From Thermoplasmatota archaeon (GTDB lineage Archaea; Thermoplasmatota; Thermoplasmata; Lutacidiplasmatales; UBA184), in NCBI GenBank assembly GCA_036781185.1, contig DAIQBL010000001.1:23369-87368 (forward strand): DNA of 64,000 nt, given 5' to 3'. A program made the position numbers and the translations under genes. The notes under the pieces are model-generated. The model searched no databases, had not been told where the DNA came from, and saw nothing but the letters and a program-made list of their open reading frames with translations. Positions 12,380 to 51,092 of this stretch are shown here, piece after piece. How positions within the stretch are numbered: the first letter of the stretch is position 1; every line of letters starts with the position of its first letter.

Positions 12380-13174
12380 TTAGGTCGCGTGCATCCAGGT
12401 GACGTTGAAGCTTGTCCCGTCCGGCGTCAGCGCGGACGTGGCCGCCTTGGTGTGAAGGGTGGTCGTCATGTTGATCCGCTGGATCGTCGACGAAGCGAAC
12501 CCGCCGATCACGTGGGTCGTGCCTCCGATCGTGGCTTCGTTGGTGTTCGCCACGTTCGTCTTGTCCTTGCCGAAGTGGGCCGTCCCGAAGTCGGAGAGCG
12601 GCAGCACCGAGCTGCTCGACGGAGCCTCGGCGATCCACTCGGCCGAGTGGTGCTTCGCCGTCGGGACCTTCTTCGAGTGGTGGGAGCTCACGCCGGTGGT
12701 CACGTCGGTGAGCGTGACGGTGAACCCGACGGTCGAGCTCACGTACTTCACGGACGCCTTCATCGTGTCCCCCGGGTGGACCGTGATGGGGAAGTTGAAC
12801 GGGAAGGCGGGGTAGAACTCGTACCAGGCCGAGTACACCGCGGTACCGCTGCTGCAGTCGGCCTCGGTCCCGGTCTGCTCGACCGTGTTGGAGCCGTCCC
12901 CATCGATCCCGACCCAGAACGAGGACCAGCGGTTCGCGGAGGTGCACGTCAGCGTCGGCTGGACCCACGACCCCTGCACGTACGTGACCTTGTTCGTCGA
13001 GCTGATCACGGCGTAGCCGGCCCAGTTCGAGCTGTGGGACGTCGGGTGGGGGCCGGAGAGGAAGAGCGCGTTCTCGGGGGTGACGACGGGTGTGACCACC
13101 ATGGTCGCCGCGACGGCGGCGGGTAGGACGACGATCGACACGAGGAGCATCAAGGCCGACAGATTGCGACGCAT
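12380..13174 (-). CDS. Secreted glutamic peptidase, G1/eqolisin (peptidase A4) family
   Basis: Signal/TM MRRNLSALMLLVSIVVL, then SNWAGYAV, FWVGIDGDG...VEQTG (Gln aligned to the catalytic Gln of scytalidoglutamic peptidase), YSAWYEFYP and SAEWIAE (catalytic Glu motif). Confidence 0.7.
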   Translation of the reverse strand: MRRNLSALMLLVSIVVLPAAVAATMVVTPVVTPENALFLSGPHPTSHSSNWAGYAVISSTNKVTYVQGSWVQPTLTCTSANRWSSFWVGIDGDGSNTVEQTGTEADCSSGTAVYSAWYEFYPAFPFNFPITVHPGDTMKASVKYVSSTVGFTVTLTDVTTGVSSHHSKKVPTAKHHSAEWIAEAPSSSSVLPLSDFGTAHFGKDKTNVANTNEATIGGTTHVIGGFASSTIQRINMTTTLHTKAATSALTPDGTSFNVTWMHAT

Positions 13175-13336
13175 ACCGTTCCTTCGCCTCGGGGGAGGCG
13201 GGCGAGCTACGGGCTCCTCGGTCATCAACCCTCTCCTTCCGGCGCGAAGCCGGGTCCGGACGAGACCGGTGGGGTCCGCGGACTCGGTCGTCCCCAGAAA
13301 GTCTCTTACGGGAGAGCCCGCGCACAGTAGTGTTCA

Positions 13337-24833: not shown

Positions 24834-24918
24834 GCGGGGATCGCCCAGCTTGGTCAAAGGCGCCAGATTCAGGGTCTGGTCTCGTAGGAGTTCGTGGGTT
24901 CAAATCCCTCTCCCCGCA
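24834..24918 (+). tRNA. tRNA-Leu (anticodon CAG), long variable arm
   Basis: Folded by hand. Acceptor GCGGGGA pairs with TCCCCGC. D-stem CGCC/GGCG. Anticodon stem CCAGA/TCTGG with loop TTCAGGG gives anticodon CAG. A 14-nt variable arm with a CTC/GAG stem. T-arm GTGGG-TTCAAAT-CCCTC with one U-U mismatch. Discriminator A; CCA is not encoded. TATA-like tttcatat lies about 28 bp upstream. Confidence 0.8.
24897..24918 (+). repeat. 22-nt direct repeat, copy 1 (3-prime end of tRNA-Leu): ggttcaaatccctctccccgca
   Basis: Copy 2 at 25601..25622 is an exact match. Confidence 0.8.
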
Positions 24919-25050
24919 GTTTCCTATTATTTCTAGCTGTGTCAATCGGTGAATGCTGAACCGAGCTTGCTACGGAGGCTACCCAGCTCGCAACGCGCTC
25001 CATTCATGCATATAGCAAGCTATATGGATGCCATAGACCATGGATCGGCC

Positions 25051-25287
25051 ATGATCACGACCATCCAGCTAACCCCGCAGACCCGCTCCCGCCTCGCCGA
25101 ACTGAAGCAGAGTCCTCGTGAGTCCTACGACGAAGTCCTCACCAAGCTTCTTGCCCTTATCCCGGAGGGGGATGAGGAGGGGGCGTACACTCAGCCGTTC
25201 CGCGTCGCCCTACTTCGCTCCCGATTGGAAATTCGCGACGGCCGGACACTCCCCCACGCTCAGCTCAAGCGACGGCTAGGCCTCTGA
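25051..25287 (+). CDS. Antitoxin, ribbon-helix-helix/CopG-like DNA-binding protein (78 aa)
   Basis: MITTIQLTPQTRSRLAELKQSPRESYDEVLTKLLALIPEGDEEG. Its stop overlaps the start of the downstream RelE-like ORF. The start was placed at the internal ATG; the track ORF begins at an upstream GTG. Confidence 0.55.
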   Translation: MITTIQLTPQTRSRLAELKQSPRESYDEVLTKLLALIPEGDEEGAYTQPFRVALLRSRLEIRDGRTLPHAQLKRRLGL

Positions 25288-25538
25288 AGGCTTGGTCCAT
25301 CGTCTGGTCGGAGACGGCGGCGCGCGATCTCTCGGGTCTCGACCTCCCGGTCGCGAGACGGGTGGTCCGGAAACTCGAAGAAGCCGCCACTGACCCCGAG
25401 CGGTACTTCGAACGACTGGTCGCCACCGAGGACTCGAAGCTTCGGATCGGGGATTATCGACTCTTGGCTCTGCTCGACCGTTCGACCCGCACGATCCTGA
25501 TTGAGCGAGTAGACCACCGATCCCGGGTGTACCGGTGA
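25284..25538 (+). CDS. RelE/ParE-family toxin (mRNA interferase); no canonical start codon, possibly CTG-initiated or a pseudogene
   Basis: Hand translation of the frame overlapping the antitoxin stop gives (L)KAWSIVWSETAARDLSGLDLPVARRVVRKLEEAATDPERYFERLVATEDSKLRIGDYRLLALLDRSTRTILIERVDHRSRVYR. This is the classic RelE/ParE pattern (W-x-I-x-W...RIGDYR...HR). There is no ATG/GTG/TTG in frame between the upstream stop (25173) and codon 60, which is why the ORF track omits it. Confidence 0.6.
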   Translation: MKAWSIVWSETAARDLSGLDLPVARRVVRKLEEAATDPERYFERLVATEDSKLRIGDYRLLALLDRSTRTILIERVDHRSRVYR

Positions 25539-25600
25539 CCAGTGGCGGAACCCTGGGTCGGGACACGAAGGCTCCGTGCCATGGAGTCAAGTTCGGGATT

Positions 25601-25622
25601 CGAACCGCCGGGCGGTTCAAAT
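25601..25622 (+). repeat. 22-nt direct repeat, copy 2 (putative attR), embedded in an inverted repeat
   Basis: Exact match to the tRNA-Leu 3-prime end. The upstream flank ggattcgaacc is the near-reverse-complement of ggttcaaatcc. Confidence 0.75.
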
Positions 25623-25754
25623 CCCTCTCCCCGCATCGTCCTGGTATTCCGGCTCTTCCAATTGGTACGCCCTGAACCGGGCCGGCCCTCGGAGCCGCCG
25701 ATCCGTCTCGAATGAGGGGTCGGGGCCTCGCGGAACGTCCTCGGCGGTCCGCGA

Positions 25755-26543
25755 TCAGGGCCCCGCGGACTTCCAGGTCACCTTGAACGTCTTGCCGCCG
25801 TTCGACAACGCGCTCGGCACCGCCATCTTCGTCGTGGTCGATGCTTTCAGCATCGTGAGGGCCTGGTTCGAGAAGCCGCTGATGGAGTGGCTGTGACCGT
25901 GGATCGTCGCGGAGGCGTTGGTGAACGTCACCGACCCGAAATCCGTGAGGCGCGTGCTCGTGCTCGAGATCTCCGTGATCCACTCGGCGGAGACCCGCAG
26001 CGCCCCGGGGTCGGCCACGTACTGGGTGACGTGTTTTCCGCTCGTGGTGTCCTTGAGGGAGAGCGTGAACAACTTGCTGGCCTTGCTGAACTGGATTTCC
26101 GCGTGGATGGCGTCGCCCGCCTTGATGGAGAGAGAGAACGTACCGGCCCGGACCGGAGCGACCTCGTACCAGGCGTAGTACTGCGGCGAGCCCGATTGGC
26201 AGTTCGTCGCCGTGCCGATCTCCTCGAGGGTCGTCGAAGAGGTCGCTCCGTCAATGCCGACAAAGAACCCCGCGTTCCGGGCGGAACTCGGGCAGGCGGC
26301 GGCGACCCCCGGCGCGTGCCAGCTGCCCTGGACGTCGGTCACGCCTCCGCCGGTCGTCGTGATGACGTAACCCGACCAGTAGAACGACGGGTGGTGGGTC
26401 GTTCCGAACACGGCGGCGGGAACCATCGGTGCTACCGAGGTGGTCGCGGCGGACGAGGAGGCGACCGCAAGGCCCGAAAGCCCCACGCCGAGAAGCGCGA
26501 ACGTGGCGGTCACGACCATCAGTCGGTGGCGGGTTCGGCCCAT
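25755..26543 (-). CDS. Secreted G1/eqolisin-family glutamic peptidase paralog with Glu in place of the catalytic Gln
   Basis: Signal MGRTRHRLMVVTATFALLGVGLSGLAVASS, then YWSGYVI, FFVGIDGATS...LEEIGT (Glu where paralog 12380..13174 has Gln), YYAWYEVAP and VSAEWITE (catalytic Glu motif). The start was set at the internal Met. Confidence 0.65.
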   Translation of the reverse strand: MGRTRHRLMVVTATFALLGVGLSGLAVASSSAATTSVAPMVPAAVFGTTHHPSFYWSGYVITTTGGGVTDVQGSWHAPGVAAACPSSARNAGFFVGIDGATSSTTLEEIGTATNCQSGSPQYYAWYEVAPVRAGTFSLSIKAGDAIHAEIQFSKASKLFTLSLKDTTSGKHVTQYVADPGALRVSAEWITEISSTSTRLTDFGSVTFTNASATIHGHSHSISGFSNQALTMLKASTTTKMAVPSALSNGGKTFKVTWKSAGP

Positions 26544-26985
26544 GGACACTCCCGCGGGGCCAACGGAGAAGCCCCGTTTAAATCCGCGTTCGACCCGGGC
26601 CCATTCTCCGGGCCGACGGAATCCGAGTCCTCGCGCCGGGTTGGGAACCGGCGCCCGGCCGGTGAGACCACCCGGAGCCGCGGACCGGAACTCCGCGTCG
26701 AGTCGGCCCATTAATCCTGGTCCGTCGGGCCACGCTCCGGAGCTTCGGCTGACGGGGGATCAGGCCGCCCGCGCAGGATCGGACAGGGTCCGCCGCCGAG
26801 CAATGACCGTCGGTGCCGGCCGGCGGGTCCCGGACCGTCGCCCGCGGCCGGTCGGTCGCAGCGACTCCTCCCCCGACGAGACCGAACGTGCGGGGGTTAT
26901 ACAGCAGCCGGGAGAATATCCGCAACAAGCGAGGTGACGCGGACGGACACCCGGCTCCTGAGCCGGCCCGGTTCGCCCCGCTCTC

Positions 26986-28032
26986 ATGGGGAACAAGCTA
27001 GCGAGCGCCCGTCGGCCGCGGTGGAAGCGGTCCGGTCCTGGGGGACACCTCGTCTCCGCCCTGTCTCCGGCCCTGCTCGTCGGGTTGCTGGGCCTCGCCG
27101 GGGTGACCACCGGGTATCCGACCCCACTGCCAGCGCAATCCTCGCCCGCCCTCCCCGCTCAATCCGCGGGCAACTTCTCGCTCGCCGCCGTGACCTACCC
27201 GACGGCGATTCGGCACGTGATCGTCGTGATGGAGGAGAATCACGACCTCGTGTGGACCCTGACGAACCCGGCCTTCCTCTCGCTCTACTCGCATAGTGCC
27301 CACGCCACCCGGGCATACGCGATCTGCCACCCGTCGGCGCCGAACTACATCGCGATCAGCAGCGCGGTCGACCAACGGTGCGGCTCGGACCGGGTCACGT
27401 ACCTCAAGGCGACCAACCTCGCGAGCGACGCGGCGAGCCACTCGGTCTCCTGGCAGGGGCTGTTCGAGTCGATGCCGTCCGCGTGCGACCGTACCGACGC
27501 CTACCCGTACATCGCCCACCACAATCCGTGGGTCTACTATTCCGACCTGAAGTCGACATGCGCGGCCCACGACCTGTCGTTCTTCACGCCGACCGGGGCG
27601 TCACGGCTGCAACTCGAGCTGAACGGCTCCACGCTGCCCGCCCTGACGTACATCTCCCCGAACATGCTGCACGACGCCCACGACGGTTCGCTTGCCGCCG
27701 CCTACAGCTGGCTCGCGAAGTACGTCCTGCATCCGGTGCACGCCTCCTCAACGTACGCTCCGACGACGGCAGTGATCGTGCTGTTCGACGAGGCGTACAA
27801 GCAGAGCTGCCGATGCTCGGAAGGCGGGGGGTACACCGCCGGCACCATCACCGTCTCGGGCGGACCGATCTACCTCGTGGTCCGGTCGCCCGTGTCAAAC
27901 GGGACGGACGTGGTCACGGTGCACGTGACCGAGTTCAACGTGGTCTCGACCATCGAGTGGCTCCTCCGGCTTCCGTCCCTCGGACACCAGGACAACACCA
28001 AGTTCCCGGCGATGAAGTCGCTCTTCACCTAG
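26986..28032 (+). CDS. Secreted phosphoesterase-family protein (acid phosphatase/phospholipase C-like)
   Basis: Signal/TM LVSALSPALLVGLLGLAGV. HVIVVMEENHD, CHPSAPNYIAISS and AHHNPW are hallmarks of the phosphoesterase family. Confidence 0.7.
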   Translation: MGNKLASARRPRWKRSGPGGHLVSALSPALLVGLLGLAGVTTGYPTPLPAQSSPALPAQSAGNFSLAAVTYPTAIRHVIVVMEENHDLVWTLTNPAFLSLYSHSAHATRAYAICHPSAPNYIAISSAVDQRCGSDRVTYLKATNLASDAASHSVSWQGLFESMPSACDRTDAYPYIAHHNPWVYYSDLKSTCAAHDLSFFTPTGASRLQLELNGSTLPALTYISPNMLHDAHDGSLAAAYSWLAKYVLHPVHASSTYAPTTAVIVLFDEAYKQSCRCSEGGGYTAGTITVSGGPIYLVVRSPVSNGTDVVTVHVTEFNVVSTIEWLLRLPSLGHQDNTKFPAMKSLFT

Positions 28033-28189
28033 TCCGTTCCGGACCCATCCAGGTCAGCCGACCACCTACGGGTCCCATCCGGGTGGGGCGGTCGCCCGAG
28101 CCGGGGGCGAAACTCGGGCAGGATTCGGGCCGGACTGGGGGACGATTGCGGGCTTTCGATATCCCCTACCTGGCCGCTCCGCGGGCACC

Positions 28190-29344
28190 ATGCCGAGACC
28201 GAGTGCCCTTTGGCTGATGCCCGTAGCGGCCGTGCTGCTGCTGCTGGTACCCGCCGCCGCCGCGTCTTCGCCCACGACGATCTCGCCTCCGACTCACGGA
28301 CTGCCCGCCGGTTCGGGAGGGCTCGTGTTCACGATGTCGAACGCCGTCTCCGGGAACGTCGTCTGGGCGTACCACATCGCGGCCGGCGGCTCGCTCGTGC
28401 CCGTCGGGCACTTCGCGACCGGCGGAAAGGGGACCGGCGCGAGCCTGGCCGACGCCAACTCGGTCGTACTCTCGACCGATCACCGATACCTCTTGGTGGT
28501 GAACGCCGGCAGCAACACCGTCACGGTGTTCGGCGTGCACGCGCCGGCCCCCGGGTCGGCGGTCCTCTCCGTCCTCGACCGCGCGAACTCTCGGGGCGTC
28601 GGGCCGGTGAGCCTCGCCGTCCACGGCCCGTTCGTGGAAGTGCTCAACGCGGGGAACTCGACGGTCGCGGGCAACATCGCCGGCTTCCTGCTCGCCGACC
28701 ACGGGCTCCTGCTTCCCCTGCCCCACTCCCGCCAGCCGCTGAGCACGAGCGCTCCGGCGGGCCCGGCCCAGATCGGGTTCAACCCCTCCGGAACGGTGCT
28801 CGTCGTCACCGAGAAGGCCACGAACCAGATCGACACCTACCCGGTCTCGAGCCAGGGGATCGCGGGGAGTCCGACGTTCACGACCTCGAACGGCACGACG
28901 CCGTACGGCTTCGCGTTCGACCCGAACGGCGCCCTGATCGTCAGCGACGCCGCCTCGGGAGCGCTGTCGTCGTACACGGTCGCGGTCTCCGGTGCCCTCA
29001 CCCTGGTCAGCGGGACGGTCGTCGACAACCAGCTCGCCCCGTGCTGGGTCGCGGTCGCCCACGGAGGGAAGATCGCCTACACCACGAACGCCCACAGCAA
29101 CAGCATCTCGTCGTACACCGTCGGGCGAGGCGGCGCGCTTACGCTCCTCACCTCGGTCGCGGCCACGACGGGGACGGCGGACACGGACCTCGCGGTGGCG
29201 GGGACCCACGGGCAGTACCTGGTCGTCCTCGACGCGGGCGCCGCGGAGGTCCAGGAGTTCCGGATCGGCGCGAGCGGGGGGCTGACGCTCCTCTACACCG
29301 TCTCCGCCCTGCCGAGCGCCTCGGAGGGGCTGGCGGCGTTCTGA
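28190..29344 (+). CDS. Secreted 7-bladed beta-propeller lactonase-family protein (6-phosphogluconolactonase-like, COG2706)
   Basis: Signal peptide LWLMPVAAVLLLLVPAAAASS, then repeated blade-like segments (VWAYHIAAGGSLVPV, YLLVVNAGSNTVTVF, FVEVLNAGNSTVAG, VLVVTEKATNQIDTY, ALIVSDAASGALSSY, IAYTTNAHSNSISSY, YLVVLDAGAAEVQEF). Confidence 0.65.
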   Translation: MPRPSALWLMPVAAVLLLLVPAAAASSPTTISPPTHGLPAGSGGLVFTMSNAVSGNVVWAYHIAAGGSLVPVGHFATGGKGTGASLADANSVVLSTDHRYLLVVNAGSNTVTVFGVHAPAPGSAVLSVLDRANSRGVGPVSLAVHGPFVEVLNAGNSTVAGNIAGFLLADHGLLLPLPHSRQPLSTSAPAGPAQIGFNPSGTVLVVTEKATNQIDTYPVSSQGIAGSPTFTTSNGTTPYGFAFDPNGALIVSDAASGALSSYTVAVSGALTLVSGTVVDNQLAPCWVAVAHGGKIAYTTNAHSNSISSYTVGRGGALTLLTSVAATTGTADTDLAVAGTHGQYLVVLDAGAAEVQEFRIGASGGLTLLYTVSALPSASEGLAAF

Positions 29345-29431
29345 GCGGGGACGACCGACGGGCCGCCGACGGGCCGACGTGGGCGAAGAGGAACCCCTGA
29401 TAAGGAGCGGGCCGCTCGGCCCGGGCACGCC

Positions 29432-29788
29432 ATGAGCCCGGGCTTCCGCTCCCTGATGTGGTACGTCCTGTTCGGCACCCGCGGCGGCCCGAACCGACGC
29501 CGGATCCTCGACGAACTCCTTCGCTCCCCCGCCAACGCCCACCAGTTGGCGGGGACGCTCGGCCTCGACTACCGTACGGTCCGGCACCACCTCCGCCTCC
29601 TCGAGCGGAGCGGCGCGGTCACCCGGCCGGTCGGCGACGCCTACGCCACGCCGTACGAGATCGCCGCTTCCACCGCCGCGTACCTGGAGACCGTGACCGA
29701 ACCGGCCGCGCGCCCCGACCGGCCGCCCGTCCCCGCCCGCCGTCGGACCCCGACGCGGCCGGGCGGGGCCGGAGGCGTCGTCCGATGA
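29432..29788 (+). CDS. Winged-helix (ArsR-like) DNA-binding protein
   Basis: RRRILDELLRSPANAHQLAGTLGLDYRTVRHHLRLLERSGAV is an ArsR/SmtB-type HTH. It overlaps the downstream small membrane protein gene by 4 nt. Confidence 0.6.
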   Translation: MSPGFRSLMWYVLFGTRGGPNRRRILDELLRSPANAHQLAGTLGLDYRTVRHHLRLLERSGAVTRPVGDAYATPYEIAASTAAYLETVTEPAARPDRPPVPARRRTPTRPGGAGGVVR

Positions 29789-30072
29789 CAAACCTCCTCA
29801 TGGAGGCGAGCGTCGCGCTCGGCCTCGTCAGCATCGTCCTCGCCGGGGGCCTGTTCCTGCTCTACCGCCGAATTTACACCCAGACGAGAACCGGGTTCGG
29901 CCTCGCGCTCCTCGTCTTCGCCGGCGCCTTCGTCGTCCAGAGCGCCCTGACCGTGTACTCCTACCTCGCCGCGATGCCGATCATCCCCGACTCGTTCGCT
30001 CCGTTCCTGTTCGGGATCGGCCTCTGCGAAGCGACCGGTCTGGGGGCGGTCGTCTGGACCGCCTCGCGCTGA
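29785..30072 (+). CDS. Small membrane protein (3 TM), partner of the upstream HTH protein
   Basis: MTNLLMEASVALGLVSIVLAGGLFLLY...LALLVFAGAFVVQSAL...FLFGIGLCEATGLGAVVW. The start overlaps the stop of 29432..29788. Confidence 0.5.
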   Translation: MTNLLMEASVALGLVSIVLAGGLFLLYRRIYTQTRTGFGLALLVFAGAFVVQSALTVYSYLAAMPIIPDSFAPFLFGIGLCEATGLGAVVWTASR

Positions 30073-30170
30073 GCGCGGCGACGGAACCCGCTTCCGCGGG
30101 TCGGGGGATCGCTCGACCGACCGGCGTCCGGGCGAAAGACGATTAGAGGCGCCGGCCGCTGGCGGCCCCG

Positions 30171-30674
30171 ATGGAACTCCTAGGCCCCGGCCTCCGCGTC
30201 CGAAACCTCGCTCGCTCCCTCCAGTTCTACACGAGTGCGCTCGGGCTTCGGGAGGTCCGCCGCGGGGATACCCGGTCGTGGGGCGGGGGCCTCTGGGTAC
30301 TTCTCGAAGACCGGAAGTCGCGCCAGCGGGTGGAGTTGAACTGGTACCCTCGAGGTTCGATCTTCCACGGACCGTTCCGGGCCGGCGATGCCCTCGACCA
30401 TCTCGATTTCGACCTCGGAGCGGTACCGGTGGCGGAGCTCGAGCGGGCGTACCGGCGGGTGGTCCGCGGCGGTGCGCGCGGTACCCGATACACGCCGTCC
30501 AGAACGGCCGGGTGGATGGCGAGCGCGATCGACCCGAACGGGGTTTGGATCGTGCTCACCCGGCGACCGACCCCCGCCGAACATCGCGCGATGCAGCGGG
30601 TCGACGCAGGGGTGCCGGCGACGAAGAGGTCCGGAGCGAAACGCCCGCGACCCCGCCCGCGCGCCCGGTCGTAG
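30171..30674 (+). CDS. VOC/glyoxalase-bleomycin-resistance-fold protein
   Basis: MELLGPGLRVRNLARSLQFYTSALGL...DHLDF...IDPNGVWIVL is typical of VOC-domain proteins. Confidence 0.6.
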   Translation: MELLGPGLRVRNLARSLQFYTSALGLREVRRGDTRSWGGGLWVLLEDRKSRQRVELNWYPRGSIFHGPFRAGDALDHLDFDLGAVPVAELERAYRRVVRGGARGTRYTPSRTAGWMASAIDPNGVWIVLTRRPTPAEHRAMQRVDAGVPATKRSGAKRPRPRPRARS

Positions 30675-30716
30675 CCGAGGTCGGCGGAGCGTGCCGGGGC
30701 GGCCGAGGAGGATTCC

Positions 30717-31472
30717 GTGAAACCGAGGAACGGCCGGCGACCCGAGGGCCCTCCCGTCCGAATCGCCCCGCTCACGACCAAGCGATGGACCGACCTCCAG
30801 AGCCTCTTCTCCGAGAGTGCGACCACCGACGGGTGCCAGTGCACCTGGTTCTTCCGGACCGGACCGGAGTTCCGGGACGGCTACGGGCCGGGCAACCGGA
30901 ACGCGCTATACGACCGGGTCTTGGCCGGCGGGCCCCCGGGCGTGCTGGCGTATGTCGGCGGGGCACCGGCCGCGTGGTGCGCCTTCGGGCCCCGGGAGTG
31001 GTATCCCCGCGTGGACCGTTCCCGACTGTTCCGCGGGGTGGGCCGGCCCGGAACGTGGGCGATCGTCTGCTTCTTCGTGCCAAACCGGTTCCGGGGGTCG
31101 CGCCTGATGGATCGGCTCATCGAGGCGGCCGTGGAACGGGCGAGCGAAGCGGGTGCGTCGGCCGTCGAGGCGTACCCGGTCGTCGTCGAGCCGGGCGGCC
31201 GCACCGACCCGGGGAGCGGGTACCACGGCTTCGTCGGGCCGTTCCTCCGGTCCGGCTTCCGCGTGGTCGGCCGGCCGTCCCCGGCGCGGGCCGTCGTCCG
31301 GAAGGAACTTCCCGGCGCGTCCCTCAGGGGCGGCCGGCGGCGAGAAGGCGGCCCGGGTCCGCGAGCAGCCGCTCCCACATCGCGCGGGTCACGGCCGTCG
31401 GCGACCCGCGTTCGGCGACCAGGATCGCGTCGACCCGGCCGTCGTCCCACTCGAGGAACAGCTGCGGAATGA
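30717..31472 (+). CDS. GNAT-family N-acetyltransferase with low-complexity C-terminal tail
   Basis: WAIVCFFVPNRFRGSRLMDRLIEAAVERASEAGASAVEAYP is a GNAT motif A/B region. The last 60 aa or so are Arg/Pro/Gly-rich and overlap the convergent thioredoxin-like gene. Confidence 0.6.
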   Translation: MKPRNGRRPEGPPVRIAPLTTKRWTDLQSLFSESATTDGCQCTWFFRTGPEFRDGYGPGNRNALYDRVLAGGPPGVLAYVGGAPAAWCAFGPREWYPRVDRSRLFRGVGRPGTWAIVCFFVPNRFRGSRLMDRLIEAAVERASEAGASAVEAYPVVVEPGGRTDPGSGYHGFVGPFLRSGFRVVGRPSPARAVVRKELPGASLRGGRRREGGPGPRAAAPTSRGSRPSATRVRRPGSRRPGRRPTRGTAAE

Positions 31473-31668
31473 CGTAGTCGTCGTCCCAGAGGCCCTGAGC
31501 TTCGACGATCCGGTCGGCCTCCTTCGCCGTCGCGGGACTGTCGATATCGAGCATCCGGAGAGCGACCCCGAGACGCTTCGCGAGGAGCGGGGCGCGCTCG
31601 GTCGACACCGGGTCGCAGTGCGGGCACCAGACCGCGTAGACTAGGGAAAGTCGGGTCGGTTTCGCCAC
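31324..31668 (-). CDS. Thioredoxin/glutaredoxin-fold protein (WCPHC active site)
   Basis: LVYAVWCPHCDP...YVIPQLFLEW. The start was set at the GTG (VAKPTR) to give about 114 aa; the track ORF extends to 31710. Confidence 0.6.
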   Translation of the reverse strand: MAKPTRLSLVYAVWCPHCDPVSTERAPLLAKRLGVALRMLDIDSPATAKEADRIVEAQGLWDDDYVIPQLFLEWDDGRVDAILVAERGSPTAVTRAMWERLLADPGRLLAAGRP

Positions 31669-31714
31669 GAGCCCTCGCCCTCCGGCCGCGTCGACCGCCG
31701 GGCCCCGCATATCG

Positions 31715-43670: not shown

Positions 43671-46267
43671 CCTCCGCCGCGTGGTTCGAGCCGCGCAGCG
43701 ACCACTGGTCGGGCCCGTTCCTCGACCGTCTTGCCTCGCTCGCCGCCGCCACTCGGTTCGGGACCGCCTGGCTGGTGGTCCGCCGGACCGGCCTCGCCGG
43801 GGCCGTGGTCCTGGGAAGCGACCCGGTGGCCCGGGACCTGATCGAGTCGGCCGCCAGCCCGTGGCCGGCTCGGGTCACCCCGGTCGGCCCGGCGGCGTTC
43901 GGGTCGCCCTCTCCGCTCGACGGCCTGGCGGCGTTGGCTCGCCCAGGATGGGGCTGGCGAACGACCGAGGCCGGCGTCCCCGCGCCGGACCGAGCAGCCC
44001 CGGACCGCGATCGCGTCCCTCCCGAACTCTCGGTTCCGCCCGGCGGGCGACAGTGCCACTGGTTCTCGACGGGCACCGGCCGGCTCGCGGTTCGTGTCCG
44101 AGTCTGGGCGCGGGCCCAACCGACCGCCGCCCCAGGGTCGCTCGCCCGGCTCGCCCTCGACGGGATCGAGACGTTCCGTCACGCGGGCGTCCCGGCCGAG
44201 CTCCGCGAGCTCCGGAACACGACCGGGCGACGGGAGGCGTGGCGGACCGGGCGGGTCGGCTCGTTCGCCTCAGGCCCGCTCGAACGCCTTCTGCCGGCCG
44301 TCGCGGCGCGGCTCGCCCTCGGCTCGTCCCCGCCGGTGCGGCTCGACGATTCGGCCGTCGGGCGCCACATCGTGGCGGTCGGCGCGTCGGGCGCCGGGAA
44401 GACGTCGTTCCTCGCCGACCTGGCCGCCGCCCGGATCGGGCGCGGCGGCGCGGTCCTCGCCATCGACCTGCACGGCGACCTCGCCCCCGCGATCGTGGCG
44501 CGACTGGCGCCGGCGATCCGGACATCGGTCGTCGCGGTCGACGCCGCCGGTCCGCTCGACCAAGTGCAGGGCGTGCGCCTCCTGGGAGGTCGGAATCAGA
44601 CGGCGGAGGATCCGGGGCCCGCGCACCTCGTGGCGGCCCTGAAGCGCCTCACCTCGGATTCCGGCGACGTCTACTGGGGGTTCCGACTGGAACGGACGCT
44701 CGAGGCGTTCGTGCGGCTCGCCCACGAGGAGGGCGGGGGACTGCTCGACGTGTACGAGCTCCTCACGGACGCCCGTCGGAGGGACGCCGCCCGTCTCACG
44801 ACGCGGGACCGAGCGCTGGCCAACTTTCTGGATGAGATCCCGACCCTGTTGCGGCGCAACCCCGAGTACCTCGCGCCCGCGACCGCGCGCGTCGCGAAGG
44901 TCGCTCTCGCGCCCCGAATCGCGCGGCTGCTCGACCCGGCCGGCCCCGGTCTGCCGGTCGAATCTCTTGTCGGGCGCGGACGGTCGATCCTCTGGCGGAT
45001 CCCGTTCGCGCAGCTCGGACCGGAGGCGGCCAGCTTCGCGGCGACGCTGCTCGTGGCCCACGCGTACTTCGGTCTCGCCGCGCTGGGCCCCGGCCGACCC
45101 GACGAGCTTCGGGTCGCGCTCATCGTCGACGAGGCCTCCGCGCTCTCCCCGCGCCTCCTCGCCGAGATCCTGTCGGAGGGCCGGAAATTCGGCGTCGGGG
45201 CGGTCGTGGCCACGCAGTATCCCGGGCGCCTCGCCCCGGAGGCCCGGGCCGCCGCGGAGGGCGCCGCGGGCACGCACGTCGTGTTCCGCGTCCCCCCGCC
45301 GGTGGCCGCGGCGACGGCGGCCTGGGCCGGCCTCGACCGGTCCGCCGAGGCCTGGCTGCCGGCCCTACCGGACGGCACGGCGGTCGCGGTCCGTTCCGGG
45401 GACTCCGGCTCCCGCGGCGCGATCCAAGTGGCGCGGGGACCGCCCGACGACCCGGCGGCCTGGGAGGAGGTGTGCGAAGCGAGCGCTCTCGCGGCGGCGG
45501 AGTCCGACGGGGAACCCGGCGACGTTCCCCGCACGGTCTCGGACGCCGTCATGTTCTCGCTCGCCGCGGGACTCGGCGACGCGGGCACCCTCGCCGCCCG
45601 GGTCGTCGGGGTTCTCGGAGAACCGGTGGAGCCGGCGGTCGTGAACGAGAGCCTCGTCCGTCTCGGGCGACGTGGCTGGGTGACGAACATCGACGGCCGG
45701 TTCGACCTCACGGACGCCGGCGCGCGGTATCTGGGGGTCGGGGCGCCCACCGGGGCGATCCGCGAAGGCGCGGAGCATCGAGCGCTCCTGTACCACGCGT
45801 TCGGGATCCTCGCCCGCCGGGGCGCCCGGCTGGAGCTGGTCCGGCAGGGGCGGTTCGACCGTCGGCTCCCGGACGCGGTCGTCCGGCTCCTCCCCCCCGG
45901 GGTCGGTCACCGAGGTCCGGCGGAGCTGGCCCGCGCGGTGGATGCGGCGCGCTCGACGTGGGCGTGGCGCTACTTTGGCGGACGAGACGTGGACGTCGAA
46001 GCCGAGGTGAGCGGGGCGCTGCGCCCCGACCGGGTCCGGCGCAATCTGGCGAAGGCATCGGACCAGGGTCATTTTGCCCTGTTCCTCGTCGCGGACCCCG
46101 CGCGGGCGCGACGGATCCGGACCGTCCTCGCCGAAGCGGCGGCGGGAATCGGGACCGCTCAGGTCTGGACGCTCGTCCGGGCCCGGGCGGCGTCGCCGTC
46201 GGCCGGCGAGGGGACGGACGGGAGCGGTGGGGCGGTCCGTGGCGGCAGCCCCCCGCCCTCACCGTAG
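43652..46267 (+). CDS. FtsK/HerA-superfamily P-loop ATPase (VirD4/TraG-coupling-protein-like or DUF87) with a C-terminal winged-helix and extra domain
   Basis: Walker A HIVAVGASGAGKTSF followed by AIDLHGD; Walker B RVALIVDEASAL; and GVGAVVATQYPGRL (TQ-P motif). GTG start at MPDGRVTSAAWFEP. No TM helix. The roughly 350-aa C-terminal extension includes MFSLAAGLGDAGTLAARVVGVLG (wHTH-like). Confidence 0.6.
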   Translation: MPDGRVTSAAWFEPRSDHWSGPFLDRLASLAAATRFGTAWLVVRRTGLAGAVVLGSDPVARDLIESAASPWPARVTPVGPAAFGSPSPLDGLAALARPGWGWRTTEAGVPAPDRAAPDRDRVPPELSVPPGGRQCHWFSTGTGRLAVRVRVWARAQPTAAPGSLARLALDGIETFRHAGVPAELRELRNTTGRREAWRTGRVGSFASGPLERLLPAVAARLALGSSPPVRLDDSAVGRHIVAVGASGAGKTSFLADLAAARIGRGGAVLAIDLHGDLAPAIVARLAPAIRTSVVAVDAAGPLDQVQGVRLLGGRNQTAEDPGPAHLVAALKRLTSDSGDVYWGFRLERTLEAFVRLAHEEGGGLLDVYELLTDARRRDAARLTTRDRALANFLDEIPTLLRRNPEYLAPATARVAKVALAPRIARLLDPAGPGLPVESLVGRGRSILWRIPFAQLGPEAASFAATLLVAHAYFGLAALGPGRPDELRVALIVDEASALSPRLLAEILSEGRKFGVGAVVATQYPGRLAPEARAAAEGAAGTHVVFRVPPPVAAATAAWAGLDRSAEAWLPALPDGTAVAVRSGDSGSRGAIQVARGPPDDPAAWEEVCEASALAAAESDGEPGDVPRTVSDAVMFSLAAGLGDAGTLAARVVGVLGEPVEPAVVNESLVRLGRRGWVTNIDGRFDLTDAGARYLGVGAPTGAIREGAEHRALLYHAFGILARRGARLELVRQGRFDRRLPDAVVRLLPPGVGHRGPAELARAVDAARSTWAWRYFGGRDVDVEAEVSGALRPDRVRRNLAKASDQGHFALFLVADPARARRIRTVLAEAAAGIGTAQVWTLVRARAASPSAGEGTDGSGGAVRGGSPPPSP

Positions 46268-46791
46268 GCGCGGTGGTGCATCTCCTCGAGGACCGCCTGG
46301 CTGAGATAGGTCAGCGCCGCGTCGTTGAGCCGGTCGAGGTGAAGGAGGAGGTAGTGCAGGTAGATCCGCTCGGGACGATGGGACGGTCCGGGCGGGCGTT
46401 CCGGATGCCCCAGGGAGGGGACAGAGTCCGAGGCGACGGTCGCCAACGTCTCGGCATGGTGCTCGGCGTTCTTGCCGTGCAGCGACCGCCCCGTCGGACC
46501 CACGAGCGGCGGGTAAACGCGCGAGATCGGGTCGTCGGGCCCGTCCGAGGCGATCGACGCCGCGCGCGCGCTCTCGGCCGCGGCGTCCGTCTCGAGCCGC
46601 CACTTCGTGTACGGGTGCGCGGGCCGGTTCGGATCCTGGAACTCGGCGATCGGTCGTCCCCCGACGTCCTCGACGATCGACTTCAGGCTCCAGCTGTCGC
46701 GACGCCGGCCGGGCCCATCCATCGAGGGAGCGGGCTCGGCGGACACGAAGTCCGCGAGCCCCGACCCCCGCTCATAAACGTGCGGTTCCAT
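46159..46791 (-). CDS. Hypothetical protein, last gene of the minus-strand T4SS-like operon
   Basis: 210 aa of normal composition. It overlaps the VirB4-like gene by 20 nt, and its 3-prime end overlaps the convergent ATPase gene. Confidence 0.45.
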   Translation of the reverse strand: MEPHVYERGSGLADFVSAEPAPSMDGPGRRRDSWSLKSIVEDVGGRPIAEFQDPNRPAHPYTKWRLETDAAAESARAASIASDGPDDPISRVYPPLVGPTGRSLHGKNAEHHAETLATVASDSVPSLGHPERPPGPSHRPERIYLHYLLLHLDRLNDAALTYLSQAVLEEMHHRAYGEGGGLPPRTAPPLPSVPSPADGDAARARTSVQT

Positions 46792-48439
46792 CGGCCCGCG
46801 CCTCGGCGTCGGTCGGGGAACGGAGCGAGCGGGCGAGGAGCTCGAACTCCGGCGTCGAGGCGACGACCGCGACCGGGAGGTGCGACGGGCCGAACCGCAG
46901 GAGTCCCTCGGAGTACCCCGCCTCCCGGGGGAGCCGGCATTGGGGAAGCCAGCCGGCCTCCGCGTCGGTGAGCGCGAAGAACCGACGGGTCGCCTCGGAG
47001 ACCTCGGCCAGGTGGAGGAGGAGCGTGGCCCGGAGATTCCGCAGGAGCGACCGCCCTCCGTCGGTCCCCAGAAAGTCGTCCGGGTTCTGGCTGAGCAACA
47101 CGACGCCGGTCCGGTAATGCCGGACGTGCCGGACGATCCGGTCGAGGAACTCGGCGGTGGCGGGGTCCCGAGCGAGGAGGTGCGCCTCGTCGATGACGAG
47201 GAGCTTCGGTCGGTCGTCGCGCCGGATCCGTCCGTACAGGGCGTCGAGGACCACCGCGAGGTGGAACGCCCGCTGACCCGCCGGGACCTCGTGCAGGTCG
47301 ACCACGAGCGAGCCGGTCGGCGGGGGCTCGACGGCCACGCGGTCGAGGTGCGCGAGCGATCCGGAGACGAAGACGTCGAGGAGCCCGGCGAGTCGCCCGG
47401 GTCGGTCCGCGGCGAGGACGATCTCCCGGAGTCGGGCGAGCGTCGGCCGCTCGACTCCCGCGTACAGCCGGGCCACCGAGGCGTCGAGAAGCGCGACCTC
47501 CTCGTCCGCGAGCGAGGGGAACGCGGCCCGCAGCGCCGTCACCACCCGGGCCGCCTTCTCCGGTAGGTCGCCGCCGGTCGTGGCGGCGTCGAGCGGGTGA
47601 AAGCGCGCCGGGGCATTTCGTCCGACGCCGACCACGGTCGCCCCGAGCGGGCCGGCGAGGCCGGCGAACTCCCCGAGCGGGTCGACGATGTACACCTCGA
47701 GGCCCGGCGTCATCCAGCGGGTCCGGAGCGCGAGCAGCGCGGCGGCGAACGACTTCCCGGACCCCGTCGCCCCGAACACCCCCCAGGAGTAGCTCGCATG
47801 CCGCCACCGGTCGAGGAACACCGGGGCCGCGTCGTCGAGGAGGAGGCCGACGAGGACCCCGTGCGGCTCGACGATGGCCTCGTCGACGAAGGGGAAGAAC
47901 GCCGCGACCGCGTCGGTCGGGAGGGTCTGCCAGTAGCCGGGCGGCCGCGGCTCGCTTCCGTCGAGCGCCGGAGCGGCGGACGCGGCGGCGGCCTCGTACG
48001 GCGCGGTCGACATCCCGAACCCGAGGGCAGCGAGACGGCGGGCCAGCTCGGCTCGCTCCCGCTCCAAGCTCGCGGGCGATGTCGCGAGGGCGTGGAACGA
48101 GAGGCCGACGCGGAACAGCTGCTGGTCGTTCGCGGCGAGCCGGCGCTCCAGGTCGTGCGCGCTCTCCGCCTCGAGCTCGAGTTCCGGCAGGTCCCGGGCG
48201 CCCCCCGATTCGATCTCTGCCTCAGCAACCACGGCCGCGCTCCGGACCATCGATAGGGCGCGGTCGCGGCCGATTCGGTGCAGCTGGAGGCGGAACTCGA
48301 ACGTTCGGCTCGTGGGGAGGACGCGGGACAGGAACCCGAACGGGACGGCCTTCGGGAGGGTCCGCGCGAGGAGGGTTCCGTCCAGCCGACCCCGTCGGAT
48401 CACGAACCGCGGGGCCTCGTGCTCCGGTCGCCCCGTCAT
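46772..48439 (-). CDS. VirB4/TrbE/CedB-like type-IV-secretion ATPase
   Basis: Walker A VFGATGSGKSF followed by YIVDPLGEF; Walker B KLLVIDEAHLL; and GVVLLSQNPDDF. This is the CagE/TrbE/VirB (AAA_10) pattern. The start is at the internal Met (MTGRPEHEAPRF). Confidence 0.75.
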   Translation of the reverse strand: MTGRPEHEAPRFVIRRGRLDGTLLARTLPKAVPFGFLSRVLPTSRTFEFRLQLHRIGRDRALSMVRSAAVVAEAEIESGGARDLPELELEAESAHDLERRLAANDQQLFRVGLSFHALATSPASLERERAELARRLAALGFGMSTAPYEAAAASAAPALDGSEPRPPGYWQTLPTDAVAAFFPFVDEAIVEPHGVLVGLLLDDAAPVFLDRWRHASYSWGVFGATGSGKSFAAALLALRTRWMTPGLEVYIVDPLGEFAGLAGPLGATVVGVGRNAPARFHPLDAATTGGDLPEKAARVVTALRAAFPSLADEEVALLDASVARLYAGVERPTLARLREIVLAADRPGRLAGLLDVFVSGSLAHLDRVAVEPPPTGSLVVDLHEVPAGQRAFHLAVVLDALYGRIRRDDRPKLLVIDEAHLLARDPATAEFLDRIVRHVRHYRTGVVLLSQNPDDFLGTDGGRSLLRNLRATLLLHLAEVSEATRRFFALTDAEAGWLPQCRLPREAGYSEGLLRFGPSHLPVAVVASTPEFELLARSLRSPTDAEARADGTARL

Positions 48440-48792
48440 CGCTCGACCTCCGGACCGGCCAGCGTGCGCTCCGTCGTAACGGCGAGCGCGGCCGTGGCGA
48501 GTCCGAGGAGGCTCCCGCGGAGTATCGCCCAGGGGGGGACGGCGAAGAGCGCGAACGCCAAGGCCCCCGATACCCCGACCACGACCCAACGGTCGCGTGC
48601 AGGGGACGTCCGAAGCCGGCGGGTCCGCACCCGGACCGCCCAGGCCAGTAGGCCGATCGCCGCGAGCGCCTCGGTCAGTCCGAGGAGGTACGGCTCGAGG
48701 AGGGAGCCGACCCCGGCCAAGGCCCCGAACGCTCCGGCGGCGCGGAGCGGGTCGATCTCGAGCGGCGCGCGGAGCAACCCGCCAATCTTCAC
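48436..48792 (-). CDS. Small membrane protein (3 TM) in T4SS-like operon (CedA2/VirB3-like position)
   Basis: A GTG start overlaps the upstream stop (GTGA). VKIGGLLRAPLEIDPLRAAGAFGALAGVGSLLEPYLLGLTEALAAIGLLAWAVRV. Confidence 0.5.
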   Translation of the reverse strand: MKIGGLLRAPLEIDPLRAAGAFGALAGVGSLLEPYLLGLTEALAAIGLLAWAVRVRTRRLRTSPARDRWVVVGVSGALAFALFAVPPWAILRGSLLGLATAALAVTTERTLAGPEVER

Positions 48793-49565: not shown

Positions 49566-49569
49566 CGGG

Positions 49570-50712: not shown

Positions 50713-50720
50713 CCGGCCCC

Positions 50721-51092
50721 CTAGGCACCGGTCAGGACCCACTGGGCGAGTCCCCAGATCAGGCCGGAGAGCGCGGCCGCGAAGATCAGGGTACCGACGA
50801 GCGCGTCCCGGGCCCGGTCCTTCGCCTGGATCTTCTTCGTCACGTCGTTCGAGAACCAGGAGAGGGCGACCCGGGCCCACACGATGGCGAGCAACCCACC
50901 ACCGGAGAGTCCGAGAAGGACCACGATCCGGTTCACCACCTCCGAGAAGTTTGCGACCGCGGAGCCGTTCGCGCCGGCCGATGTGGCCGGATGGAGCGGA
51001 GCGAGCGGCGGGACGCCGAGCGACGTCCCTCCGACGAATCCGAGGAGCACCAGCGTCAGGGCAGCGAAGGCCGCGGGGAGCGCGGCGGTCAC
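50721..51092 (-). CDS. VirB2/TrbC/TedC-like conjugative-pilin candidate (signal peptide plus two hydrophobic helices joined by a basic loop)
   Basis: MTAALPAAFAALTLVLLGFVGG (signal), helix 1 VVNRIVVLLGLSGGGLLAIVWARVALSWF, basic loop SNDVTKKIQAKDRARDA, helix 2 LVGTLIFAAALSGLIWGLAQWVL. Length 123 aa. Confidence 0.5.
   Translation of the reverse strand: MTAALPAAFAALTLVLLGFVGGTSLGVPPLAPLHPATSAGANGSAVANFSEVVNRIVVLLGLSGGGLLAIVWARVALSWFSNDVTKKIQAKDRARDALVGTLIFAAALSGLIWGLAQWVLTGA

Follow-up and report, generated by a model that had tools for sequence, protein, structure and literature searches.

The 717 bp that directly follow a tRNA-Leu(CAG) gene in a soil Thermoplasmata genome (24919..25635) are, on balance, best read as a mini-element resembling a cis-mobilizable element (CIME) that was inserted by site-specific integration and moved in trans. 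The origin by integration is well supported; the cassette may still be mobile. It consists of a toxin-antitoxin (TA) pair and a right-end site and is part of a 64-kb window (the entire stretch of DNA analysed, 64,000 nucleotides) from a Lutacidiplasmatales-like soil Thermoplasmata MAG, for which 80 related genomes served as the comparison set. Site-specific integration into the tRNA gene had been proposed in a preliminary description of this DNA, and is supported by low GC and GC3, by repeat-bounded units and by integrases at the same tRNA in relatives. The GC content is 55-65% in the cassette region against ~70% in the flanks, and the cassette GC3 is 0.68 against 0.86-0.96 in host genes.

The tRNA gene is intact (Rfam tRNA 44.5 bits against a gathering score of 29, E 5.5e-8), with one non-standard U:U pair in its T stem. 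It is 93-100% identical to its counterparts in 80/80 relatives, and its sequence equals that of relatives without the insert, indicating that an intact tRNA was regenerated at attL. The last 22 nt, GGTTCAAATCCCTCTCCCCGCA, which cover the T loop, the 3' T stem and the acceptor 3' strand, recur exactly (22/22) downstream. Allowing up to three mismatches, this 22-mer has two matches in the window and none in 100 dinucleotide shuffles. The exact recurrence had been recognized before, but the second copy had been placed at 25601..25622; it lies at 25614..25635, 13 nt further downstream, and the end assumed earlier cuts through it. Similarly, 22 nt is the length of the exact core only, as the full direct repeat extends over 35 nt with 86% identity between its two copies (Table 1). 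The motif TTTCCTnnTATT of the left tail also stands 3' of repeat copies in L002, L003 and L006. Searches of the window with the 40-mer, the arm, the core and the tail, with many mismatches allowed, returned only the two known copies. A tRNA-Pro gene was considered as a second integration site and has no direct repeat of its 3' end within 14 kb.

The downstream copy sits in an imperfect palindrome, as described earlier, with 15-nt arms (25595..25609 and 25611..25625) that are 93% complementary. As single-stranded DNA it folds with -11.8 kcal/mol (z = -2.35), and its left half is the element-side arm adjoining the right repeat core.

Table 1 Features of the cassette and its surroundings in the window
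Feature	Position	Strand	Evidence and remarks
tRNA-Leu(CAG), intact, without encoded CCA	24834..24918	+	ARAGORN; Rfam RF00005; attL in 3' end
Left repeat (attL)	24897..24931	+	22-nt exact core 24897..24918 and degenerate tail GTTTCCTATTATT
Palindrome CATGCATATAGC-AA-GCTATATGGATG	25005..25030	+	Inverted repeat; invariant block in five-genome alignment
Antitoxin gene, 78 aa, DUF7557 family	25051..25287	+	Pfam PF24434, 4.4e-8
RelE/ParE-family toxin gene	25284..25538	+	Frame open 25287..25538; Pfam PF05016 (ParE_toxin) 1.3e-9, full profile length
Imperfect palindrome GGGATTCGAACCGCC-G-GGCGGTTCAAATCCC	25595..25625	+	Inverted repeat
Right repeat (attR)	25614..25648	+	22-nt exact core 25614..25635 and degenerate tail TCGTCCTGGTATT
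Rest of variable island (context, outside cassette)	25636..31323	.	Pfam; synteny
Thioredoxin-like gene, first syntenic gene	31324..31710	-	Synteny with relatives resumes ~31330

Between the repeats lies only the two-gene TA module, and no integrase, in agreement with the preliminary description. Its RelE/ParE assignment of the toxin stands (Pfam ParE_toxin), and the toxin also matches PDB entry 2khe (3.5e-7) and Rv2866 (5.8e-4). The antitoxin gene was likewise placed correctly and is called identically in public assemblies. Its description as ribbon-helix-helix-like is not established: the protein matches only Pfam DUF7557 and no PDB entry by sequence, and the AlphaFold model (pLDDT 61), whose confidence is too low for a fold search, has helices only at residues 9-18 and 26-35, which fits a beta-alpha-alpha order and is not diagnostic of ribbon-helix-helix. 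The toxin frame contains no ATG, GTG or TTG ahead of 25362, and translation probably starts at a CTG at 25284 that overlaps the antitoxin stop (CTGA). The toxin frame overlaps the antitoxin TGA (25285..25287) in a CTCTGA(A/G)G junction that is kept in 10 genomes. Both genes are under purifying selection, with dN/dS of 0.08-0.27 for the antitoxin (against 10 orthologs) and 0.10-0.17 for the toxin. Upstream, the palindrome at 25005..25030 contains a TATA-like CTATATGG ~24 nt 5' of the antitoxin ATG, and CTATATG is found ~24 nt ahead of the start codon in diverged TA copies as well. The palindrome may thus be the promoter/operator of the pair, which would be transcribed as a leaderless message. 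The probable role of the TA pair is addiction or stabilisation, by which the unit would be retained at its site.

The 64-kb window encodes neither an integrase nor a piece of one from the two families described below, as judged by Pfam on all large ORFs, precomputed Pfam matches in the central 20 kb and tblastn with both families, which gave nothing below E 0.01. ORFs overlapping the repeats show no integrase similarity either, so the cassette is not flanked by int(N)/int(C) fragments. On its 3' side follows a 5.7-kb island encoding a peptidase A4, a phosphoesterase, a lactonase-like protein, an ArsR-type regulator, DUF8036, a glyoxalase and one further ORF, with host-like GC3 (0.81-0.93). The island has no recognisable right border because the searches with parts of the att site gave only the two known copies.

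The junction between an aldolase gene and tRNA-Leu(CAG) is conserved in the 80 relatives, and the sequence 3' of the tRNA is hypervariable, with loss of synteny. Comparison with related genomes for an empty site, as proposed earlier, revealed near-empty sites: in L034, the downstream syntenic gene begins ~140 nt after the tRNA, against 6.4 kb in the window. The TA unit itself is far from universal. A TA homolog follows tRNA-Leu(CAG) in 10/80 relatives and the pair is absent from 70/80. The same unit is found in four other species (L001, L002, L003 and L006), with a repeat spacing of 716-718 bp, and homology among the five cassette copies stops just past the right repeat core. In L003 it stands second in a row of three, and arrays of up to three integrase-less units occur in L002 and L003, with modules shuffled among arrays. 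Diverged versions of the TA cassette are present in six more species, where the repeat comprises only CCCTCTCCCCGCA plus native flank. L096 carries a TA homolog with no tRNA within 10 kb and has the arm and CCCTCTCCCCGCA on both sides. GNAT acetyltransferases, methyltransferases and hydrolases abound in the wider variable islands 3' of the tRNA.

Between the window and L003 or L006, TA dS is 0.33-0.34 against 0.47-0.85 in four host genes for the same pairs, a contrast that is based on 161 codons and is modest against GlnA (0.47-0.48). We considered these values as proof of horizontal transfer and kept them as suggestive only, because of the small distance to GlnA. L006 is closest to the window by TA and most distant by aldolase. 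In four assemblies with this exact antitoxin, the antitoxin adjoins the peptidase A4 gene in 4/4 and the toxin ORF is called in 3/4; these assemblies showed neither an empty site within the species nor a circular junction. The comparison with plasmids and viruses that had been suggested for the TA pair gave no match: the antitoxin had none in plasmid and phage collections, and IMG/VR had none for the antitoxin, for the site or for the alignment of the integrases.

Secondary repeat copies have more in common than the tRNA end. All 22 distinct copies, whatever their cargo, share a 38-nt site in which the arm ATTTGAACCGCCGGGC is directly followed by GGTTCAAATCCCTCTCCCCGCA. The 16-nt arm is present on every secondary copy, missing from the tRNA, and 80-99% conserved over the 22 sites. 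The cargos are unrelated and include other ParE pairs, PKD/beta-propeller surface proteins, DUF998 and hydrolases; some units are 2-4.7 kb long, with several genes that point in both directions. In L064, L071, L054 and L085, the tRNA is followed by tandem sites without cargo. Most of the 80 loci are without recognisable sites and the arrays are short. A scan of metagenomes with the palindrome gave 10 matches, 7 of which are further cassette ends, all adjoining tRNA-Leu(CAG); the other three lack the core and are probably chance or unrelated matches. The site consensus, ATTTGAACCGCCGGGCGGTTCAAAT, is palindromic and, read from its sequence, has no attC core (GTTRRRY / RYYYAAC). Where secondary cores deviate from the tRNA, they do so mostly in the T loop: 20/30 mismatches lie in the first 9 nt (p = 0.005). 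Since the diverged cassettes also keep only CCCTCTCCCCGCA of the repeat, the likely place of the crossover is 3' of the T loop.

Five relatives (L031, L047, L050, L062 and L102) have a tyrosine recombinase gene 44–53 nt past tRNA-Leu(CAG). The L050 integrase matches Pfam Phage_integrase (4.9e-11). The other four, among them the L047 protein of which only the N-terminal 38 aa precede the contig end, belong to one family with 255 homologs at E <= 1e-10, which has no Pfam match and for which there are no Pfam or NCBIfam models. The predicted structure of the L062-type integrase (pLDDT 83) matches XerA, IntI, Cre and lambda Int; a sequence comparison with solved recombinases gave no match, so that the similarity is one of predicted fold alone. 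The family has invariant R, K, Y..R, H and Y residues. A regular expression for the canonical HxLR...LLGH failed to match it, and the family has YVLRS/ILGH variants. Elsewhere, homologs lie ~50 nt after tRNA-Val, tRNA-Gly and tRNA-Arg genes.

Integrases, where present, are part of plasmid-like elements that encode a DUF87 ATPase. None of the integrase-bearing elements was recovered in full with its two ends: the contigs of L031, L047, L050, L062 and L102 end inside, and in L098 and L099 the right end of such an element is >10 kb away. Because contigs break inside these elements, the one genome that may link the L062-type family to the palindromic right end is L060, which has a left end typical of integrase-bearing elements together with the palindromic right-end site. 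The left ends differ, with GTTTCCTATTATT in the TA cassette and GGCGGTTCAAATACCACAAATAG in integrase-bearing elements. No parent element carrying the TA pair was found in these comparisons.

The 3' end of tRNA-Leu(CAG) is an integration hotspot in this soil Thermoplasmata lineage. We propose that a circular precursor carried an attP in which a 22-nt copy of the tRNA 3' end stood between the arm ATTTGAACCGCCGGGC and the tail TTTCCTAnTATT, and that recombination of this attP with the tRNA was carried out by a tyrosine integrase. The product would be a regenerated, intact tRNA at attL, with the arm and the original tRNA end left downstream as attR. Cleavage is predicted 3' of the T loop, within TCCCTCTCCCCGC. 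On excision, the junction of the circle would be expected to read GGATTCGAACCGCCGGGC-GGTTCAAATCCCTCTCCCCGCA-GTTTCCTATTATT, and the cassette-free junction the tRNA followed by TCGTCCTGGTATTCC. As the cassette encodes no recombinase, it would rely on integrases in trans, and may persist through those supplied by larger tRNA-targeting elements, as in bacterial CIMEs. Like these, it retains attL and attR and has no integration or transfer genes, and integrase-bearing elements of the same site specificity exist. A more far-reaching proposal, which we consider speculative and rather improbable, is that soil Thermoplasmata harbour a tRNA-anchored integron-like cassette system. Its enzyme would come in trans from the large tyrosine-recombinase family missed by the domain libraries. 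Small integrase-less units with TA pairs, surface proteins or small enzymes, each closed by a conserved 38-nt site that forms a hairpin and imitates the 3' end of tRNA-Leu, would be captured at the tRNA, stacked, reshuffled and exchanged between species, with TA cassettes as array stabilisers.

The preliminary description had offered two readings of the cassette, a decayed integrated element and a unit mobilised in trans, and the evidence leans to the latter over a random decay remnant. An inert scar would derive from one ancestral insertion that lost all but its addiction module and was passed on vertically with some losses, so that the conserved right end would be merely historical; this has a real, if minor, chance of being correct. 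It would accommodate the absence of an integrase from the window, the presence of the TA pair in every assembly holding the exact antitoxin, and TA protein identities that roughly follow relatedness (88-94% in the closest relatives, 63-76% in distant ones). A subsequent insertion at the tRNA could account for the second position in L003, and archaeal elements that lost their integrase once integrated are on record (PMC8371274). We nevertheless favour mobilisation in trans because identical boundaries recur in five species at different array positions, because the right-end site is conserved across unrelated cargos, and because diverged TA copies still keep att-like flanks with arm and core, one of them without a tRNA nearby. 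A neutral scar would be expected to erode, and not to leave a non-coding 38-nt site so well conserved at 22 places. The TA dS below that of four host genes in two genome pairs, and the conflicting positions of L006 by TA and by aldolase, also speak against a scar.

It is unlikely that the locus is an integron-like capture platform, in which the tRNA end is the primary site and a host-encoded tyrosine recombinase captures and reshuffles hairpin-ended cassettes of one gene or a TA pair as a regular adaptive system. The integrase-less arrays of up to three units, the palindromic site at the end of each unit and the cargo-less tandem sites would suit such a platform, as would the integron-like cargo (several TA pairs, secreted and surface proteins) and the enzyme classes of the variable islands; archaeal integrons are enriched in TA cassettes and signal-peptide proteins (PMC9668308). 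However, no recombinase gene is fixed beside the array, and the integrase, where there is one, belongs to a plasmid-like element. Short arrays, the many loci without recognisable sites, the missing attC core, the promoter-like region of the TA pair and the multi-gene units in both orientations are further points against a platform. It is very unlikely that the repeat was produced, while foreign DNA was being taken up, by recombination that is not site-specific, whether homologous or illegitimate, or by a local duplication of the tRNA 3' end. The repeats are short and archaea are able to recombine on short homology, and integrase-independent exchange of modules between tandem elements has been proposed (PMC8371274). 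Yet every secondary copy carries the arm that the tRNA lacks, which argues for descent from a distinct attP-like sequence and not from tRNA duplication, and integrases occur at exactly the same site in relatives. The chance that another tRNA gene or pseudogene ends in the downstream 22-mer, as the preliminary description had considered for an intact gene, is practically negligible. Although a T-loop-like GGTTCAAATCC and an acceptor-like end are present, the upstream sequence is the palindrome and not D or anticodon arms, and this candidate was rejected as ARAGORN found no tRNA or tRNA-like match over 25540..25640 and Rfam none even at E <= 10.

Among known systems, the cassette resembles the Streptococcus ICESt1-type CIMEs, whose tandem accretion at tRNA genes has been reviewed (PMC5704250). 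In both, attL and attR stem from the target's 3' end, integration and transfer genes are missing, the units stand in tandem and integrase-bearing kin use the same site. Unlike them, the cassette is archaeal, measures 717 bp, holds only a TA pair and recurs in several species; its excision, its cis-mobilisation and its derivation from a known parent element are putative. The ssrA islands of Dehalococcoides are likewise tandem, with a ~20-bp direct repeat of a small RNA gene's 3' end at their borders, and 15 of them without an integration module are proposed CIMEs (PMC3146451). They share with the archaeal units a conserved motif, not part of the RNA gene, directly 5' of each repeat, and insertion near the T loop. 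They differ in using a serine recombinase (DsiB), a tmRNA target and a bacterial host, with the integrase mostly present (PMC3146451), whereas the archaeal units are inserted at tRNA-Leu(CAG), mostly have no integrase and have tyrosine recombinases as their candidate enzymes.

In its small self-promoted TA unit, its palindromic site and its array of unrelated cassettes, the locus is similar to the TA cassettes of chromosomal integrons (PMC13108822; archaeal integrons PMC9668308), and a stabilising role is plausible. It differs by the lack of IntI or attI beside the array and of an attC consensus, by the tRNA anchor and by repeats that are copies of the tRNA 3' end. Archaeal elements with pNOB8-type (non-suicidal) or SSV-type (suicidal) tyrosine integrases also target tRNA 3' ends, are bounded by repeats and integrate in tandem, with known loss of the integrase (PMC8371274; tandem arrays PMC6563490). 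In contrast to the SSV type, no split int(N)/int(C) flanks the cassette, which is therefore not an SSV-type capture, and the integrases in relatives are intact, adjoin attL and include the family without Pfam or NCBIfam models.

Textbooks cover integration at tRNA genes, islands in tandem and remnants without an integrase, but for uncultured soil archaea all three are poorly documented. New here are a minimal unit of 717 bp, made up of a TA pair and a site only, whose boundaries are kept across species, a 38-nt site common to unrelated cargos at one tRNA, and tyrosine recombinases at tRNA-Leu(CAG) that include a family of 255 detected homologs missed by Pfam and NCBIfam. If movement in trans is true, the cassette would represent an archaeal counterpart of CIMEs or integron TA cassettes and a concrete route of gene gain in Lutacidiplasmatales. 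The site consensus and the integrase alignment provide search keys for mobile DNA in Thermoplasmata MAGs. Contigs of such MAGs often break at elements of this kind.

The last 22 nt of tRNA-Leu(CAG), GGTTCAAATCCCTCTCCCCGCA, occur as exact copies at 24897..24918 and 25614..25635 of the 64-kb window. The preliminary description had recognized this recurrence but placed the second copy 13 nt too low, at 25601..25622. No third copy was found in the window with up to three mismatches tolerated, and 100 shuffles of the sequence gave no match. With a degenerate extension the repeat reaches 35 nt at 86% identity (24897..24931 versus 25614..25648). The imperfect palindrome described at the downstream copy is present, its two 15-nt arms, 25595..25609 and 25611..25625, showing 93% complementarity; as single-stranded DNA, 25595..25625 has a folding energy of −11.8 kcal/mol (z = −2.35). 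Neither ARAGORN nor Rfam, even at E <= 10, detects a tRNA-like match over the downstream copy, which is thus not the end of another tRNA gene. The repeats are attL, in the tRNA 3' end, and attR, downstream of the toxin-antitoxin (TA) pair, left by site-specific integration at the tRNA gene, as originally proposed.

The T arm of the tRNA (24890..24912) contains a U:U mismatch in its stem (GTGGG/CCCTC). In related genomes (loci designated L) the 5' strand of the stem is mostly GTGGG; L028 and L045 have GGGGG, and L063 and L064 have GAGGG, which pairs fully. The opposite 3' strand, inside the att core, is invariant. The mismatch may be a scar from replacement of the tRNA 3' end by an element-borne copy.

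Features of the tRNA-Leu(CAG) locus and of related loci
Feature	Position	Size	Evidence or remark
tRNA-Leu(CAG)	24834..24918		ARAGORN; Rfam 44.5 bits
Palindrome with TATA-like CTATATGG	25005..25030		TATA-like part ~24 nt ahead of antitoxin ATG
Antitoxin gene	25051..25287	78 aa	Pfam DUF7557, 4.4e-8
Toxin reading frame, RelE/ParE	25287..25538	83 codons	Pfam ParE_toxin, 1.3e-9
Island genes beyond cassette			Pfam: peptidase A4, phosphoesterase, lactonase-like protein, ArsR-type regulator, DUF8036, glyoxalase
Second-family integrases	L031:11008-12342; L062:11022-12428; L102:10001-11323		homologs P0121-P0240
Cargo-less arm-plus-core copies	L064:10945-11012; L071:10939-10990; L054:14339-14390; L085		L085: minus strand, after tRNA

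A predicted two-gene TA module, with matches to DUF7557 and ParE_toxin, is indeed the sole content between the repeat copies. Among PDB entries the toxin matches 2khe (3.5e-7) and Rv2866 (5.8e-4); the predicted antitoxin structure is of low confidence (pLDDT 61). Both genes are under purifying selection (dN/dS 0.08-0.27). The cassette has a GC content of 55-65% versus ~70% in its surroundings, and GC3 is 0.68 in the antitoxin ORF versus 0.86-0.96 in flanking genes. The palindrome ahead of the antitoxin is invariant in five close cassette copies and is a putative promoter/operator of the pair. The toxin frame holds no ATG, GTG or TTG ahead of 25362, that is, in its first 25 codons, and public annotations call its start differently (products of 79, 104 and 58 aa). 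At 25284, a CTG shares bases with the antitoxin stop codon TGA (CTGA), the CTCTGA(A/G)G junction is conserved in all ten genomes with the TA pair, and the N-terminal toxin residues are also under purifying selection. Together, these features suggest a non-canonical or coupled start, which would hold toxin translation low.

The locus was compared with the 80 best aldolase loci among GTDB species genomes, all from Thermoplasmata MAGs, Candidatus Lutacidiplasma among them. In at least 78 of the 80, a tRNA-Leu(CAG) 93-100% identical to ours lies downstream of the aldolase gene, in most cases directly. Synteny is kept upstream, is lost at the tRNA end and returns in the window only at ~31330, which defines 24919..31323 as a 6.4-kb variable island with the TA unit as its first 717 bp. 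The corresponding downstream gene lies ~330 nt past the tRNA in L046 and ~140 nt past it in L034, a near-empty site; the preliminary description had suggested looking for an empty one. The island beyond the cassette has host-like codon usage, and no further att copy was found in it. Two peptidase A4 (G1 family) paralogs occur in the window, at 12380..13228 and, directly after the cassette and inside the island, at 25755..26711. Island positions ~28100..30090 (lactonase-like, ArsR, DUF8036) share 72% identity with an L028 segment between aldolase and tRNA, so these same genes precede the tRNA in one genome and follow it in another.

TA homologs follow tRNA-Leu(CAG) in 10 of the 80 relatives; the arrangement is therefore not universal. 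In L001, L002, L003 and L006 the entire unit is alignable from left to right repeat, with a repeat spacing of 716-718 bp and homology ending just past the right copy. Apart from these relatives, four assemblies hold an antitoxin identical to that of the window, and all four carry the unit. L003 is an array of tRNA, 4.2-kb unit, repeat, TA pair (the second unit), repeat, 1.9-kb unit and repeat; in L002 the TA unit is the first of three. Modules have been shuffled between arrays: unit 1 of L007 corresponds to the left portion of unit 3 from L002 plus most of L003 unit 1, and L006 and L004 have a 90% identical downstream flank and different units. Between the window and L003 or L006, the TA pair has a synonymous divergence of 0.33-0.34, lower than that of host genes in the same genome pairs (aldolase 0.64-0.81, Lrp 0.71-0.80, GlnA 0.47-0.48, amidohydrolase 0.85), which is suggestive, although not proof, of exchange. 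In the L002 cassette, a 2-nt insertion frameshifts the toxin (L002:11327-11577) and the antitoxin is intact, an orphan-antitoxin state.

In relatives and metagenomes alike, every secondary copy of the tRNA 3' terminus is preceded by a common 16-nt arm that the tRNA itself lacks. Over 22 distinct secondary sites the consensus is ATTTGAACCGCCGGGC (arm) followed by GGTTCAAATCCCTCTCCCCGCA (core), 80-99% conserved per position. Units bounded by these sites carry unrelated cargo, including DUF998, hydrolases, PKD/beta-propeller proteins of 1100 aa and other ParE-type TA pairs; GNAT acetyltransferases, methyltransferases and alpha/beta hydrolases are also abundant in the wider variable islands that follow the tRNA. 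Mismatches between secondary core and tRNA concentrate at T-loop positions 6 and 8, and the first 9 nt of the core hold 20 of the 30 (p = 0.005). Diverged TA cassettes (L016, L018, L022, L037, L053) end in GGGATT(C/G)GAAC(C)-N11-12-CCCTCTCCCCGCA with native flank beyond it, and a TA homolog without a tRNA within 10 kb (L096) has this motif on each side. Together, these observations put the probable crossover on the 3' side of the T loop and indicate that the TA pair and its site move as a single unit.

More distant TA homologs at L095:9400-10700 and L097:9500-10500, also without a tRNA within 10 kb, are bracketed by another direct repeat, about AATGTCGGAGGGGGACACTACnGAATT; movement as repeat-flanked cassettes thus seems to be a general trait of this family of TA pairs. 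In several relatives a cargo-less second arm-plus-core copy (TTCCAATATTTGAACC-N7-GGTTCGAATCC...) lies 24-46 nt after the tRNA end. These copies resemble empty tandem att sites and are possibly excision footprints.

Pfam searches of ORFs and tblastn with both integrase families described below detected no integrase between the repeats, as noted earlier, or elsewhere in the window. The TA unit is a discrete integrase-less cassette whose site is maintained. In relatives, 144 ORFs from the islands were screened against Pfam and PHROG, and phmmer searches that followed identified recombinases encoded 44-53 nt past tRNA-Leu(CAG), reading away from the tRNA. The L050 recombinase matches Pfam Phage_integrase (4.9e-11). 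A second family occurs in L031, L047 (only the N-terminal 38 aa, where the contig ends), L062 and L102; it has 255 homologs in Thermoplasmata at E <= 1e-10, mostly annotated as hypothetical, no Pfam or NCBIfam match, and a match to the phrog_1 integrase (4.6e-8) in its N-terminal part only. Its alignment has invariant R143, K187, Y274, R277, H304 and Y312, and its predicted structure (pLDDT 83) matches archaeal XerA, integron integrase, XerH, Cre and lambda Int with E down to 1e-6. It is a tyrosine-recombinase family of Thermoplasmata.

Elsewhere, second-family homologs lie ~50 nt after tRNA-Val, tRNA-Gly and tRNA-Arg genes. Across the family, the tRNA-Leu loci included, a GG(C/G)GGTTCAAATAC motif is conserved between tRNA and integrase gene. 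DUF87/HerA ATPase genes follow the homologs at tRNA-Val, at tRNA-Leu(CAG) (L098, L102) and in L101 (no tRNA detected). One of these homologs shares an 888-kb contig with the L002 array, 215 kb apart. Contigs tend to break within integrase-bearing elements. L060, which has lost its integrase, is the sole locus with both the integrase-type left end GGCGGTTCAAATACCACAA and the palindromic right end. The integrase family, the TA pair and the 38-nt site were all absent from the plasmid, phage and IMG/VR collections searched, a comparison suggested at the outset for the TA pair.

Among described systems, those nearest to this one are the cis-mobilizable elements (CIMEs) of bacteria and their tandem accretion (PMC5704250), Dehalococcoides ssrA islands, tandem arrays and integrase loss in archaea, and integron TA cassettes. 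The ssrA islands have 20-bp repeats with a conserved motif upstream of each, and 15 are without integration modules (PMC3146451). For archaea, both phenomena have been described (PMC8371274; PMC6563490), and TA cassettes with terminal palindromic sites are typical of integron arrays, archaeal ones included (PMC9668308). The tRNA-Leu(CAG) cassette shares TA content and a palindromic end with the latter, but lacks the defining integron features. It represents a known kind of mobile DNA in an archaeal variant that has no integrase of its own, and is of moderate interest because of its shared site and the recombinase family that lacks annotation.

Within 43770..52903, a tRNA-Pro(GGG) gene is predicted at 91 nt, which may include an intron. 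Downstream of it, up to fibrillarin, lie two HerA/TraG/TrwB-like P-loop ATPases (44000..46264, plus strand; 46775..48589, minus strand) and three ORFs without Pfam matches. A search for a repeat of the tRNA-Pro 3' end within 14 kb found none. In L095, fibrillarin adjoins a 723-aa ORF without a Pfam match, and there is a weak TrbL_3 match. If the arrangement is conserved, this region may not be a mobile element but encode a native system for DNA transfer or secretion.
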